From NCBI GenBank assembly GCA_951406725.2, contig OX597841.1, positions 2,108,001 to 2,172,000 of the forward strand: a stretch of 64,000 nucleotides of DNA. Direction: 5' to 3'. Made by a program: the position numbers and the translations under genes. This document shows, piece by piece, positions 3,367-61,100 of this stretch; within the stretch, counting starts at the first letter, position 1; each line of letters opens with the position of its first letter. The notes below the pieces were generated by a model, which ran no database searches, was not told where the DNA came from, and saw only the letters and a program-made list of their open reading frames with translations. The stretch is from Octopus vulgaris. Taxonomy: Eukaryota.

Positions 3367-3417
3367 CACTACTAATAGTTTCATATTTTGAGAGAACACA
3401 AACGTATTCTTCAGGCG
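3367..3417 (-). ncRNA. Type I hammerhead-like motif next to Penelope RT remnant
   Basis: Reverse complement CGC-CTGAAGA-ATA..TAT-GAAA-CTATTAG-TA-GTG; stems I and II are short or imperfect. Confidence 0.5.
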
Positions 3418-3473
3418 CAAAAATATCATAACACACTAAAAATTTGAATATCTTTGAATTCTCTCAACATTGG

Positions 3474-3706
3474 AGGCGCAATGGCCAAGTGGTTAGGGCA
3501 GCGGACTTGCGGTCGGAGGATCGCGGTTTCGATTCCCAGACCGGGCGTTGTGTGTGTTTATTGAGCGAAAACACCTAAAAGCTCCACGAGGCTCCGGCAG
3601 GGGATGGTGGTGATCCCTGCTGTACTCTTTCACCACTCTAAAAAGGCGGTGCTCCAGCATGGCCGCAGTCAAATGACTGAAACAAGTACAAAAAAAAAAA
3701 AAAAAA
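3474..3706 (+). mobile_element. tRNA-derived SINE (internally deleted)
   Basis: TGGCCAAGTGG / GTTTCGATTCC boxes; 3' ggcggtgctccagcatggccgcagtcaaatgactgaaacaagt plus A tail. Confidence 0.75.
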
Positions 3707-55100: not shown

Positions 55101-58100
55101 TATTCATAGGAAGAACCAACTTCATAATTGAATTTTCGAGTTCCTGTAAAAACATAAATCTATCATATACTCTTATATAAGTACATACATATGTATATCT
55201 ATATCTATCAAACTAGCCAGCTAGATCTCTCTGTCCCCACTCATTCTGTCTGTTTGTCTCTCTCTCTCTCTCTCTCTCTCTCTCTATATATATATATATA
55301 TATATATATATAGAGAGAGAGAGAGAGAGAGAGACATACATATATTTCGGAATGGTCATTTTGCAAGTTTAGTAAGGAGAGACACAAATAAGAAAGAAGA
55401 AAACAAAGGACCACTGATGCGGTCACAGGAGTGTGACGAAAGAACTCTGGCCGAAATAAGATTAAGATTAATGTAAAAAATAAATAACACTGAAGCAAAA
55501 TGAACCAAATATATAGTGCGTGTGTTTTTATTGGCTAAACTTGCAAAATGACCATTCCGAAATATAACAATATATGTTTCAACACACGACTTCACATAAA
55601 AAAAAAAATCTTGCACAACAAATATATAAACGTATATACATATATTTATATAGATAGATATATGTATACACGTCCTTCTATTAGAAGGTTTGGAGATGAT
55701 GTACATGTATTATATATTAGAAGAAATAAGGTACTCAGAAATCTGGATGGTTTTATATTTACAGATATTTATTAGTATACTCTTTTTTACTCTTTTACTC
55801 TTTTACTTGTTTCAGTCATTTGACTGCGGCCATGCTGGAGCACCGCCTTTAGTCGAGCAAATCGACCCCGGGACTTATTCTTTGTAAGCCCAGTACTTCT
55901 ATCGGTCTCTTTTTGCCGAACCGCTAAGTGGCGGGGATGTAAACACACTAGCATCGGTTGTTAAGCAATGCTAGGGAGACAAACACAGACACACATACAT
56001 ATATATATATATATATATACGACAGGCTTCTTTCAGTTTCCGTCTACCAAATCCACTCACAAGGCATTGGTCGGCCCGGGGCTATAGCAGAAGACACTTG
56101 CCCAAGGTGCCACGCAGTGGGACTGAACCCGGAACCATGAGGTTGGTTAGCAAGCTACTTACCACACAGTCACTCCTGCGCCTATGTTGCATGTTTTTAG
56201 AAATCATATATTAGCGCTTTCGTCCACTCCAGTAGAGTCTTCGAATTGAACTTTTGTAGGAATTTTGACTCTTTTTATTGAGTGTGTACGGTAAAAAAGC
56301 AACCGGTAAAAAAGTAAAAGACTTAAAAGAAAAAGAAAAAGAAATAACAAGTACTGGGCTCGAATCGTTCGACTGAAATCCTTCCAGGCAGTGCTCCAGC
56401 ATGGGCGCATTCTAATGAATGAAACAATTGGAAAACAAAAGATAAAAGTAAAAGGAGGACGAGGAGGAAAAGGAGGAGAGTAAGAGAAGGAATAAGGGAG
56501 AAATGGGTGAAGGCAGTGCTCCAGCATGGTCGCAGTCTAATGAATGAAGCGAGTAAAGGACAAAAAAAAGAAAAAGAAGGAGGACGAGAAGGAAAAGGAG
56601 GAGAGTAAGAGAAGGAAGAAAGGCGAAGTGGGAGAAGAATAAGGAAGCAACATTACCTAAGCAGTTCGTTGCACAGATCTGTTCTTGGTTGCCATGGTTT
56701 CTCTTGATGATTCCTGTTAGGAGAAGATAATATAATTATAATATGGAATACTATGCCAAAATAACGTGTGTGTGTATACACACACACACACACACACACA
56801 CATACACACACACATATACAGACAGACATATGTATATATGTACATGTATGTATATAGGTATAAATATTATAAATACATATATATATATATATATATATAT
56901 ATATATATTGATAGATCGTTAGCTCTTACACTCATTTTTTTTTCTCTCCTTGTTTTTTTGCTGTGTATCTCTCTGTCGAAGAGCGTAGGCTCGAAACGTA
57001 AAAGACTTTTTCTATTTCTATTCCTGAACGCCATACTAATACATTTGTTTGTTTGTACTTCACCTGCCTTCGTCTTTTGTTTATTTTCGTAAACTTTCCC
57101 TTTATCTATATATATATGTATGTATATATATATATATATATATATATATATATATATATATATATATATATCTATACAATATGTTACATTACTCGGTAGT
57201 CAAGATAAAACTCTGAGTTTCAGATGCCGAAGTGGAAATCCACAACACCATCTCTTCTGTTACGTTTTTGGTCCCCTAAAGAAAACGGATAGAACATGCT
57301 TTCTGTGTTATGTCCCAAGAAGATTTTATATATTTTTATATATTTTTATATATTTTTATGTATTTTTATATAATTTTTATGACGAAAAATGCGAGCGATG
57401 TATAAGTACGCAGGCAAAGCAGAGTTATAACAGAGTAATTTCCCTTCATTTTTAACGGTATTTTTTCATAACGTTTTCAAATAGCCAGATAACCGAAGAG
57501 ATGGTGTTGTGGATTTCCACTTCGGCATCTGAAACTCAGAGTTTTATCTTGACTACCGAGTAATGTAACATATTGTATAGATAAATTTCCTCTATTTATA
57601 ATATTGAGGTCTCTTTCTTTCTTTTGTTATCTTACCGTTTTATCAATATATATATATATATATATATATATATATATATATATGTATGTATGTATATATA
57701 CACATATGTATACAGCCGAACCTGCTGGGTTCGGCTACTCAGCATTAATAAGAAGCCAATACCTTGAAACATGTCTGCAGATGCCTGACCAGCAAGGTGA
57801 AGCGGCTGACCTCCCCTGTTCGAAGGTTATAATCGACACAGTTTCGTGTGTCACATAGCGAGCTAGAGGCGATGGCCTGTTGGAGCTAATCAACGGCAGC
57901 TTTCGTCCTATATTTATGGACTACTATATTAGCTTGGTGATAACTATTAATATCCAGTACCGCTGCCGTACTCCCCTTTAGAGAGACTTAGAAATAGTAA
58001 TATTTCTATTATATATAAATATATATATACACACCCTGTTTTTCCTTCACCTGTCTTCGTGTCTTGTTTTTTTGAACAAAATATATTTATGTTTGCGTGC

Positions 58101-61100
58101 GTGTGTGTGTGTGTGTTTATGAATGCGAAACAATTTCTTTTTGGAACATTGAAACGTGAAGCAAATCAAGTTATAAATATTACTGATGTGTAAATATTGT
58201 GTCAAAAAAACCCTTCCTGAAAACGAAAGTTGTTGAAGATGATGATGAACAGTTGTATGGTTTGAACTAAGCTTTATCGCTAATTCTTCAACTGATAATG
58301 CAGGATTTTCTTCAAGTAATGCATGAAAGAGCTTATCATTAAACTCAATAGGACGTCCTGCTTGATCTTCATCTTCAAGGCTGAAATCTCCACTTCTGAA
58401 TTTTGCGAACCATCTTCTGCAAGTTAGTTAGTTAGTTAGTTAATTTGGCTCAAAAGCAAATAGCAAGGCCATGTAGGGGGACATGGAGTTAAGTACAGGG
58501 TGGTGTTCATGTAAAGAGTTCAGGCCACTTGAGGTCAAGGGAGGCTTTGAACAAAGCGGTCGTCGGCATCTTCACCATCTCGTCTGGCAGCTTGTTCCAC
58601 GGATCCGCAACCCGGACGGAGAAAGCTCCTCTCCTTCGATTGAGATGAAATCGTCGCAGGTAGAGCTTTTCGGAATGACCCCGCAGCCGACGCTCTGGAG
58701 CAGGAGTGAAGAACAGCTCTTTCAAGAGGTTACACTTTTCGCTTATGATGTTGTGAGCAAGAATGAGATCACCACAGCGGCGGCGTTTTCTAGAGAATAA
58801 AGGTCGAGCGTCCTCAGCCTTTCTTCATAGGACAAATTTTTTTTTGAGACCATGAACCATGCGGGTAGCCAGCTACTGGACTCTTTCGAGATGCTGTATG
58901 TCTTTGAGGAGATAAGGAGAAGAGGCTTGAATCCCGTATTCCAATATGGGTCTCACCAGCGTGACATAGAGTGGTAGGAATATGGCTGCTGTGAGCATTC
59001 CGAATGACCGTCGAATAAAGAACAGAATTCCGCGTGCTTTGTTGGCAGCATGGACGCACTGGGACGAAGGCGAAAAGGAGGAATCCACCAAGATACAAAC
59101 AGACATATGTATATATGTACATGTATGTATATAGTATAAATATTATAAATACATATATATATATATATATATATATATATATTGATAGATCGTTAGCTCT
59201 TACACGCATTTTTTTTTCTCTCCTTGTTTTTTTGCTGTGTATCTTTCTGTCGAAGAGCGTAGGCTCGAAACGTAAAAGACTTTTTCTATTTCTATTCCTG
59301 AACGCCATACTAATACATTTGTTTGTTTGTACTTCACCTGCCTTCGTCTTTTGTTTATTTTCGTAAACTTTCCCTTTATCTATATATATATGTATGTATA
59401 TATATATATATATATATATATATATATATATATATATATATATATATCTATACAATATGTTACATTACTCGGTAGTCAAGATAAAACTCTGAGTTTCAGA
59501 TGCCGAAGTGGAAATCCACAACACCATCTCTTCTGTTACGTTTTTTGGTCCCCTAAAGAAAACGGATAGAACATGCTTTCTGTGTTATGTCCCAAGAAGA
59601 TTTTATATATTTTTATATATTTTTATATATTTTTATGTATTTTTATATAATTTTTATGACGAAAAATGCGAGCGATGTATAAGTACGCAGGCAAAGCAGA
59701 GTTATAACAGAGTAATTTCCCTTCATTTTTAACGGTATTTTTTCATAACGTTTTCAAATAGCCAGATAACCGAAGAGATGGTGTTGTGGATTTCCACTTC
59801 GGCATCTGAAACTCAGAGTTTTATCTTGACTACCGAGTAATGTAACATATTGTATAGATAAATTTCCTCTATTTACATAATATTGAGGTCTCTTTCTTTC
59901 TTTTGTTATCTTACCGTTTTATCAATATATATATATATATATATATATATATATATATATATGTATGTATGTATATATACATATGTATACAGCCGAACCT
60001 GCTGGGTTCGGCTACTCAACATTAATAAGAAGCCAATACCTTGAAACATGTCTGCAGATGCCTGACCAGCAAGGTGAAGCGGCTGACCTCCCTGTTCGAA
60101 GGTTATAATCGACACAGTTTCGTGTGTCACATAGCGAGCTAGAGGCGATGGCCTCTTGGAGCTAATCAACGGCAGCTTTCGTCCTATATTTATGGACTGC
60201 TATATTAGCTTGGTGATAACTATTAATATCCAGTACCGCTGCCGTACTCCCCTTTAGAGAGACTTAGAAATAGTAATATTTCTATTATATATAAATATAT
60301 ATATACACACCCTGTTTTTCCTTCACCTGTCTTCGTGTTTTGTTTTTTTTGAACAAAATATATTTATGTTTGCGTGCGTGTGTGTGTGTGTGTTTATGAA
60401 TGCGAAACAATTTCTTTTTGGAACATTGAAACGTGAAGCAAATCAAGTTATAAATATTACTGATGTGTAAATATTGTGTCAAAAAAACCCTTCCTGAAAA
60501 CGAAAGTTGTTGAAGATGATGATGAACAGTTGTATGGTTTGAACTAAGCTTTAACGCCAATTCTTCAACTGATAATGCAGGATTTTCTTCAAGTAATGCA
60601 TGAAAGAGCTTATCATTAAACTCAATAGGACGTCCTGCTTGATCTTCATCTTCAAGGCTGAAATCTCCACTTCTGAATTTTGCGAACCATCTTCTGCAAG
60701 TTAGTTAGTTAGTTAGTTAATTTGGCTCAAAAGCAAATAGCAAGGCCATGTAGGGGGACATGGAGTTAAGTACAGGGTGGTGTTCATGTAAAGAGTTCAG
60801 GCCACTTGAGGTCAAGGGAGGCTTTGAACAAAGCGGTCGTCGGCATCTTCACCATCTCGTCTGGCAGCTTGTTCCACGGATCCGCAACCCGGACGGAGAA
60901 AGCTCCTCTCCTTCGATTGAGATGAAATCGTCGCAGGTAGAGCTTTTCGGAATGACCCCGCAGCCGACGCTCTGGAGCAGGAGTGAAGAACAGCTCTTTC
61001 AAGAGGTTACACTTTTCGCTTATGATGTTGTGAGCAAGAATGAGATCACCACAGCGGCGGCGTTTTCTAGAGAATAAAGGTCGAGCGTCCTCAGCCTTTC

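Follow-up and report, generated by a model that had tools for sequence, protein, structure and literature searches.

Lünse, Weinberg and Breaker reportedly described, in 2017, small hammerhead variants of Penelope-like elements (PLEs) that have a short stem III and cleave as dimers. In the available part of a survey by Cervera and De la Peña (2014; PMC4209133), the consensus of the PLE minimal hammerheads (min-HHRs) comprises a G10.1-C11.1 pair, a palindromic stem III, a NUH site and, optionally, one additional base following A9; pairs of hammerheads on opposite strands lie 100-700 bp apart, and a U3-A8 variant has about 1,300 matches in S. mansoni, besides one row for S. kowalevskii. A natural covariation from C3-G8 to U3-A8 was also described by Perreault et al. 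(2011; PMC3088659), whose available text mentions U3-A8 alone and no A3-U8. Features described for PLEs themselves include a truncated copy in inverted orientation, tailed on one side only, and a bias for (TA)n (PMC8557442). As to function, it has been suggested that the hammerheads may merely parasitise PLEs (PMC8557442), and cleavage is dispensable for PLE insertion in vitro (PMC11167929). Among cephalopods, 235 Rfam hammerhead-1 loci are given in the giant squid paper; a recent octopus repeat annotation has no mention of hammerheads in its main text and supplement (PMC13282606), Octopus is absent from the searched supplement of PMC4209133 (file 1 excluded), and no report of octopus hammerheads was found in the literature searched.

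The sequence considered here, called the window, is a stretch of 64,000 nt from Octopus vulgaris, carrying on its minus strand an apolipophorin-like gene for a large lipid transfer protein (coding span 4163-63590, -). The main finding is an octopus extension of the pattern described in 2014 (PMC4209133). The original prediction, which placed about ten hammerhead-like motifs in and beside this gene, is partly confirmed: genuine motifs are there, though in smaller number and in a more advanced state of decay than it stated.

Hammerhead motifs of the window

The core layout of a min-HHR, in which stems I and II are arranged about the NUGANNA and GAAA boxes and positions 3 and 8 form a Watson-Crick pair, is present in four strong motifs, which also have G10.1-C11.1, a palindromic stem III and a NUH site. 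The motif at 6763-6804 (-) has a U3-A8 core, a 5-bp stem I, a 4-bp stem II, an 8-nt palindromic stem III and U17; it lies in sense orientation in the last intron of the host gene, with a TA tract 15 nt beyond. A position in the 3' UTR, at a poly(A) signal, was considered for it and rejected, since coding sequence continues to a final exon at 4178. The motif at 54719-54754 (-), also intronic and in sense orientation, has an A3-U8 core (position 3 at 54749, position 8 at 54744), a 3-bp stem II, a 6-nt palindrome and a 5-bp stem I that a bulge allows to extend to about 9 bp. The motif at 25415-25499 (+), antisense to the host gene, has C3-G8, a 7-bp stem II with a 44-nt loop and an 8-nt palindrome; it is related to the one at 41284-41362 (+), which was missing from the original list and has an intact C3-G8 core and a TA tract 143 nt downstream. 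These two share the palindrome and differ in their stems. The strand bias of the intronic motifs is not significant (3 of 9 in sense, p 0.51).

The layout is weaker at two further places. The motif at 3367-3417 (-), past the gene end and flanked by two PLE ORF remnants, has an intact CUGAAGA core, 3-bp stems and a hammerhead pair probability of only 0.02 in folding; an extra candidate at 29667-29758 (-) has an intact core, an additional U ahead of GAAA and a non-palindromic stem III. The remaining motifs have altered cores: 44532-44570 (+), decayed, with a broken stem I, and its relative 56968-57005 (+), likewise decayed, with a mismatch in stem I; 55408-55452 (+), also numbered 55411, with a non-palindromic stem III; 57487-57549 (+), with an additional U ahead of GAAA and a 9-nt near-palindrome; and the duplicates of the last and of 56968, at 59764-59826 (+) and at 59242-59279 (+, 5-bp stem I), respectively. 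The changes are U4C in 44532, 57487 and 59764, A6U in 56968 and 59242, and A9C in 55408. Motifs 55411, 3367 and 29667 each lack at least one of G10.1-C11.1, palindromic stem III and NUH.

A hammerhead-like layout is found at all ten positions originally listed, which are not all independent: a tandem duplication in intron 1 (56816-61367; two copies of 2.28 kb, 2,281 nt, 99.1% identical) accounts for the pairs 57487/59764 and 56968/59242, so that the ten sites represent eight loci. The duplication is either genuine or an assembly artefact. The NUGANNA core, stated as part of the shared layout, is intact at four of the ten sites (3367 -, 6763 -, 25415 +, 54719 -) and changed at six, which lack the min-HHR core layout; likewise, the (near-)palindromic stem III holds for the strong motifs and is absent from 55411.

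Significance of the motifs was evaluated with a descriptor that allowed any Watson-Crick 3-8 pair and at most one other core change; it was composed after the motifs had been seen, though the filters it applies correspond to the published consensus. It recovers 8 of the 10 listed sites, 44532 and 56968 being lost because their stem I is shorter than 3 bp. With the duplicate left out and 2,050 local dinucleotide shuffles as the control, six intact cores were observed versus a mean of 0.25, and no shuffle reached six. Under strict filters (intact core, G10.1-C11.1, a stem III that is a perfect palindrome, and four or more Watson-Crick pairs in stem I) the four strong motifs, 6763, 25415, 41284 and 54719, remained, versus none in all 2,050 shuffles; a second, looser scan gave four versus a mean of 0.036 (2,131 shuffles). 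The proposed excess over shuffled sequence thus stands for the intact and strict classes, but not for the one-mismatch class by itself (5 versus 2.4; 197 of 2,050 shuffles), which rises above chance when G10.1-C11.1 is present (3 versus 0.13; 1 of 2,050). Two sites that passed the loose descriptor, 40597 and 57742, were dropped for their poor folds and their membership in the chance class. In Rfam, no family matched the window at the gathering score, and hammerheads are absent among the 150 rows listed of 272 with E no higher than 5; aligning the motifs with plain MAFFT gave no useful information.

The dimeric form in which such motifs would cleave is predicted by folding to a varying extent. 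The minimum-energy homodimer is a dimeric hammerhead at five of six flank lengths for 54719 and four of six for 6763, and at just one of six each for 25415 and 41284, the latter counting against the hammerhead reading of these two.

Repeat architecture and Penelope remnants

Inverted arms, as predicted, accompany three motifs. Those of the 57487 element (57166-57262/57490-57586) are 97 nt long and 98% complementary, the inverted arm being a truncated copy at 57205-57263 (-), with a counterpart for the duplicate 59764 at 59481-59539 (-). The arms of the 55408 element (55341-55372/55535-55566) are 32 nt long. For 25415 (24261-24345/25445-25529), the segment 24261-24345 (-) is an inverted, 5'-truncated copy of the 3' part of the element, 96% identical over 85 nt, lacking the core and adjoining a TA tract. 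One-sided tails are present, of 122 nt at 25415 and about 60 nt at 57487; these two exceed the 30-40 bp described, a point against a PLE reading. The expected (TA)n neighbourhood was found too: of the 10 independent motifs (the eight listed loci plus 41284 and 29667), 6 have a tract of (TA)6 or longer in the 160 nt downstream, versus a background of 12.6% (p 5e-4, with the threshold picked post hoc), and 3 of 10 have one upstream.

Copy number was evaluated for one of the ten independent loci. The A3-U8 motif lies in a highly repeated interspersed element of about 460 nt (54517-54978, -): the summed depth in the motif bin is 25,300, 39,246 and 5,274 in three public DNA contig sets, versus at most 182, 214 and 20 in adjacent-exon bins. 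Within the window, relatives exist for two pairs, 25415/41284 and 44532/56968, and in both the pairing of stem II is kept through different sequences or loops. The architecture, the multicopy 54719 element and the literature back the original assignment to Penelope-type minimal type I hammerheads in several repeat families.

The predicted Penelope reverse transcriptase remnants were found by an HMMER search: a PLE ORF remnant at 2131-2897 (-), a second one from the C-terminal RT region at 3862-4017 (-), and a remnant of the GIY-YIG endonuclease at 46562-46729 (-; profile positions 633-694 of 729, E 3e-5). A word-index homolog search with a PLE fragment gave nothing among 254 candidates, whereas HMMER did match. 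The motifs that lie beside these remnants are two, the weak one at 3367 and a decayed one near 46376; with Neptune-like proteins as the only probes, none of the strong motifs (6763, 25415, 41284, 54719) adjoins a recognisable PLE ORF. A possible ORF upstream of 29667 has no usable ESM Atlas match and no Pfam match, as is also the case for the neighbouring ORF; therefore no PLE ORF is claimed there.

Origin of the intronic motifs

The octopus intron motifs are type I minimal hammerheads and, with good probability, what several PLE families have passively left behind of their 3' ends (pseudo-LTRs); arms with one-sided tails, the (TA)n bias, the PLE ORF remnants in the window and the abundance of PLEs in this genome count for this origin. 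PLE proteins would have reverse-transcribed the RNA of the elements at targets that are AT-rich or (TA)n, leaving mostly 5'-truncated ends, at times with a second, inverted truncated copy. In tandem transcripts of the parent elements, the palindromic stem III would join hammerheads two by two, and these would cleave the RNA at a slow rate, perhaps aided by a protein; that each family retains stems and a Watson-Crick 3-8 pair peculiar to it would reflect selection for the active fold, acting in the parent element. For the solitary copies in the introns, little or no activity is predicted, and no role for the host gene. The special cluster originally proposed is not borne out: PLEs represent 6.83% of the O. 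vulgaris genome, in 190 families, or about 4.4 kb per 64 kb, and hence the motif density found here is not a cluster.

No ORF adjoins the elements, whose length is only about 230-460 nt, or 1.4 kb where a SINE is inserted; high repeat depth around 54719 covers about 460 nt, and PLE pseudo-LTRs are the source of animal retrozymes (10.64898/2026.07.22.740005). These data would fit short retroelements of a dedicated non-autonomous kind, similar to retrozymes or SINEs; their hammerhead would yield monomeric or circular RNAs, and they would borrow PLE proteins instead of being truncated PLE ends. This origin is nevertheless unlikely. Retrozymes are recognised by at least two consecutive short hammerhead-bearing units, and no such tandem array was found in the window, the 2.28-kb duplication being a mixed segment; no head-to-tail joint appears among the 15 of 18 joints listed from the contig sets. 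In contig records 6, 14 and 16 the 20-42 nt past 54978 diverge from the window, as expected if other copies extend further, and 5' truncation plus an inverted copy accounts for the short pieces. The label 'retrozyme-like' is therefore not retained, and the proposed non-autonomous families are indistinguishable from 5'-truncated ends of full PLEs.

Other explanations address the strong motifs individually. The cores of 6763 and 54719 are intact and in sense with the gene, and domesticated intronic hammerheads are known (PMC6155905), so that one or more motifs might cut the apolipophorin pre-mRNA, or an antisense RNA, as has been proposed for the conserved intronic hammerheads of amniotes. Such a role is extremely improbable: stem III is unstable in the monomer and no partner of the same family lies nearby on the same strand, 54719 lies within a high-copy repeat, 6763 is intronic rather than in a 3' UTR, the neighbouring motifs are mostly decayed, and an active PLE gave no cleavage ends in RNA-seq (PMC11167929). 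Chance or decay is also very unlikely, although less remote; by this account the motifs other than C-G would come from palindrome-rich repeats or from a doubly mutated ordinary core, and the A3-U8 'covariation' would be unselected. Both U3-A8 and A3-U8 are single copies, two intact cores other than C-G occur in 46 of 2,050 shuffles when stem filters are omitted, and the family letters at 54749 and 54744 are not among the 40 of 196 difference rows listed. Conversely, with the published filters either motif appears in 0 of 2,050 shuffles, the homodimer folds are exact, and none of the best 40 of 196 difference rows falls in 54668-54778, with rows dense on either side, which is suggestive only.

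The 3-8 pair and comparison with known systems

All three predicted forms of the 3-8 pair, C-G, U-A and A-U, are present in the window, the last two with one occurrence each, and a search limited to CUGANGA would indeed overlook 6763 and 54719. The covariation claimed on this basis was largely known already, since U3-A8 is found in PMC3088659 and PMC4209133; the sole point that may be new is the A3-U8 swap at 54719, a candidate ribozyme core from the sequence of one copy. No natural A3-U8 core was found in the literature searched, which excluded Lünse 2017 and file 1 of PMC4209133, and the available alignment of PMC4209133 contains no A3-U8 row, also by a search for three A3-U8 cores. The 54719 family had no match in a metagenome scan. 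A generic A3-U8 pattern gave at least 120 loci (about 200 estimated), with a stem I of at least 3 bp in 4 of 120 versus 5.4 by permutation; as this is the permutation level, no outside A3-U8 set is proposed. In other copies of the 54719 family the loop of stem II shows two 1-nt insertions; these are not claimed as compensatory, since it is not established that they occur together.

It is possible, if rather doubtful, that a high-copy Penelope-type octopus family fixed an A3-U8 core, beside families with U3-A8 and C3-G8. If so, it would be the first eukaryotic A3-U8 ribozyme at the family level, and selection on the elements would act on the 3-8 pair, which is formed only in the active fold, with a bearing on whether cleavage is required of PLE hammerheads. 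Their function being unsettled, the wider value of the findings lies in this pair alone; if A3-U8 were fixed throughout a family and had a compensatory history, that would be independent evidence of selection on the catalytic fold. PLE ends may also account for many of the octopus repeats with inverted arms that are unclassified or MITE-like, and a hammerhead would aid their classification.

The small variants of Lünse, Weinberg and Breaker (2017) resemble the octopus motifs in their short stem III and PLE association. Animal non-LTR retrozymes, in the available parts of their descriptions (10.64898/2026.07.22.740005; PMC7229834), also carry a type I hammerhead in short non-coding PLE-pseudo-LTR repeats, but their defining feature is a tandem series in which every unit has a hammerhead, and no such series was found here. 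Naiads, the octopus PLEs curated in PMC8557442, are without canonical hammerheads; in the supplement of that paper four of five short window motifs are unmatched, and the fifth has two matches, in unrelated sequence. PLE insertions described by Craig et al. (2021; PMC8557442) and Frangieh et al. (2024; PMC11167929) show 5' truncation, an inverted copy, a one-sided tail and (TA)n or AT-rich targets, as here. Finally, the metazoan min-HHRs of Cervera and De la Peña (PMC4209133) are likewise type I, with a short stem I, G10.1-C11.1, palindromic stem III and NUH, and also occur as many sequence-diverse families per genome, mostly in solitary copies and with opposite-strand pairs. The octopus strong motifs differ from them in having no extra base after A9 and longer palindromes (6-8 nt), and two have stem II loops of 38-44 nt; the no-bulge, long-palindrome form of 25415 and 41284 is that of the S. 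kowalevskii(2) row in the available part of the same survey.

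Motif inventory and core variation

A descriptor permitting any Watson-Crick 3-8 pair (the core base pair) and at most one other core change, written after the motifs had been seen but using the filters of the published consensus, gave 14 matches in the window, six with an intact core, and recovered eight of the ten listed sites. All ten indeed show a hammerhead-like layout; those at 44532 and 56968 were missed because stem I fails. The core is intact in four, 3367, 6763 (U3-A8), 25415 (C3-G8) and 54719 (A3-U8), thus bearing out the three predicted forms of the 3-8 pair, while U4C, A6U or A9C is found in the six other sites. 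The region 56816-61367, within intron 1, consists of a 2,281-nt tandem duplication with 99.1% identity, possibly a haplotype or assembly artefact; the motifs at 59242 and 59764 are therefore copies of 56968 and 57487, and the ten predicted motifs reduce to eight independent loci.

The descriptor also added a strong motif overlooked in the original prediction, 41284-41362 (plus strand), an intact C3-G8 minimal type I hammerhead (min-HHR) related to 25415, together with a weak one at 29667 (minus strand) and, at 57205, a copy in an inverted arm (duplicate at 59481). The motifs 25415 and 41284 are diverged relatives of each other, as are 44532 and 56968. The unrelated motifs 57487 (plus) and 29667 (minus) share an additional U immediately preceding GAAA; it might form a pair with A9 and may represent a variant at the level of families. 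Matches at 40597 and 57742 were discarded as chance class with poor fold. A degenerate hammerhead-like sequence at 35103-35170 (plus), whose element has inverted arms of 98 nt (34771-34868, 35206-35303), keeps the CUGAUGA box with an altered GAAA side; a decayed one with two core changes, seen by eye at 46340-46380 (minus), follows a GIY-YIG remnant at a distance of about 190 nt. Rfam gave no match in the window at gathering score.

Element architecture, protein remnants and host gene

In three elements the 3' part recurs as a truncated copy in inverted orientation, and only the main copy bears a tail: 57166-57262/57490-57586 (arms 97 nt, tail about 60 nt), 24261-24345/25445-25529 (85 nt, tail 122 nt) and 55341-55372/55535-55566 (32 nt, tail 45-50 nt). 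A TA tract, (TA)6 or longer, occurs within 160 nt downstream of six of the ten independent motifs against a 12.6% background (p 5e-4, with a threshold chosen post hoc); upstream it occurs in three of ten, and CA/TG tracts take its place after 54719 and 3367. Other short inverted-arm elements adjoining TA tracts, with no hammerhead detected, are found at 41582-41789 and 49942-50125; three 216-nt tandem units (98% identity), without hammerhead, occupy 51084-51731.

Penelope-like element (PLE) remnants are present as predicted. For the frame 2346-2807, 487 relatives reach E 0.001 or better; eight matches were scanned and three are full-length with RVT_1 and GIY-YIG (above cut-off, GIY-YIG in two and RVT_1 in one). 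A Cys linker of Neptune/Nematis type, a feature of that clade (PMC8557442), is found in 17 of 18 long relatives, and a profile built from these 18 matched the window at 2161-2837, 3862-4017 and 46562-46729, all on the minus strand. None of these three remnants lies beside a strong motif (6763, 25415, 41284, 54719), so that a PLE origin of the latter is suggested by architecture. A 612-codon ORF with RVT_1 at 4579-6417 (minus) is a LINE-type reverse transcriptase, not Penelope, and further LINE and mariner fragments occur elsewhere.

The host gene, at 4163-63590 on the minus strand, is apolipophorin-like: its large ORF 26097-29264 has 99% identity with an Octopus vulgaris apolipophorins-like protein, Pfam identifies Vitellogenin_N, Vit_open_b-sht and VWD pieces, and exon mapping, including a 3.1-kb exon, leads from the ATG at 63590 to the last coding exon at 4178. 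Every listed motif from 6763 to 59826 is intronic; 3367 lies past the gene end. O. vulgaris and O. sinensis have several such paralogues each, 95-99% alike within the 3.1-kb exon; the best-matching database protein ends where that exon ends, and the window gene runs on to the vWD domain and final exon. The intact non-C-G motifs 6763 and 54719 are sense to the gene and the strong C-G ones, 25415 and 41284, antisense (n = 4, Fisher p 0.33).

Repetition and predicted folding

Contigs from four runs, three of DNA and one probably of RNA, were mapped onto 54100-55160 at 80% identity. The stretch 54517-54978 is clearly highly repeated: summed contig depth, which is not copy number, ranges from thousands to over 100,000; for the bin that holds the 54719 motif it is 25,300, 39,246 and 5,274, versus at most 182, 214 and 20 in adjacent-exon bins. 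Of the independent loci, the one examined in this way, 54719, thus lies in a multicopy element. Among the best 40 of 196 rows no difference falls within 54668-54778, which includes positions 3 (54749) and 8 (54744), a hint rather than a demonstration of conservation. In the probable RNA run a joint skipping 54347-54985 agrees with an intron.

Stem III of the monomer is predicted to be unfavourable or marginal. In two-copy co-folds the minimum-energy structure was a dimeric hammerhead, with stem II formed within each copy, stem III between the two and the core left unpaired, at five of six flank lengths for 54719 and four for 6763, at only one for 25415 and for 41284, and at none of the six for 3367, 29667, 55411 and 59242; these folds are predictions and follow in part from the palindromes.

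Origin of the motifs and relation to known systems

The motifs are most probably the passive ends of several PLE families. In parent elements the hammerheads would have cut tandem element transcripts, acting as dimers; present copies are mostly decayed and solitary. That the non-C-G cores result from chance or decay is very improbable. When the window, with the duplicate removed, was shuffled locally 2,050 times with dinucleotides preserved, intact cores averaged 0.25 and never reached the observed six. Four motifs of the window combine an intact core with G10.1-C11.1, a perfectly palindromic stem III and a stem I of four or more Watson-Crick pairs, and none of the shuffles yielded such a motif. 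A looser second scan, its descriptor likewise written after the motifs had been seen, found 4, 2 and 0 motifs at 0, 1 and 2 mismatches (means 0.036, 0.015 and 0.073 in 2,131 shuffles). Two results count against the finding: the excess over shuffled sequence does not extend to one-mismatch motifs alone (5 vs 2.4; 197 of 2,050 shuffles), and two non-C-G intact cores appeared in 46 of 2,050 shuffles with stem filters off.

All four Watson-Crick 3-8 pairs have been tried in vitro, A3-U8 being among the weakest. No natural A3-U8 core was found in the literature searched, including supplement file 2 of PMC4209133; an A3-U8 core that is functional, shared across a family and so far unpublished is possible but doubtful. 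Dedicated non-autonomous elements are an unlikely source: retrozymes are defined by tandem units (10.64898/2026.07.22.740005), and no tandem hammerhead-bearing array was found in the window. Domestication is hardly to be expected. The function of the PLE hammerhead is termed unclear in PMC8557442; one such hammerhead is described as protein-assisted and not needed for insertion in vitro, with RNA-seq lacking cleavage ends (Frangieh 2024, PMC11167929).

PLEs make up 6.83% of the O. vulgaris genome, in 190 families (PMC13282606), or about 4.4 kb per 64 kb; we therefore infer that some ten pieces of 300-500 nt in the window are average, rather than the cluster originally predicted. U3-A8, first reported in nature by Perreault 2011 (PMC3088659), has about 1,300 matches in S. 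mansoni (PMC4209133). According to the same work (Cervera and De la Peña 2014), min-HHRs number thousands per genome and are sequence-diverse and mainly solitary, with opposite-strand pairs present; monomers are described as not cleaving and dimers as cleaving at low level. PLE insertions are likewise reported to comprise inverted truncated copies, one-sided 30-40-bp tails and a (TA)n bias (Craig 2021, PMC8557442).
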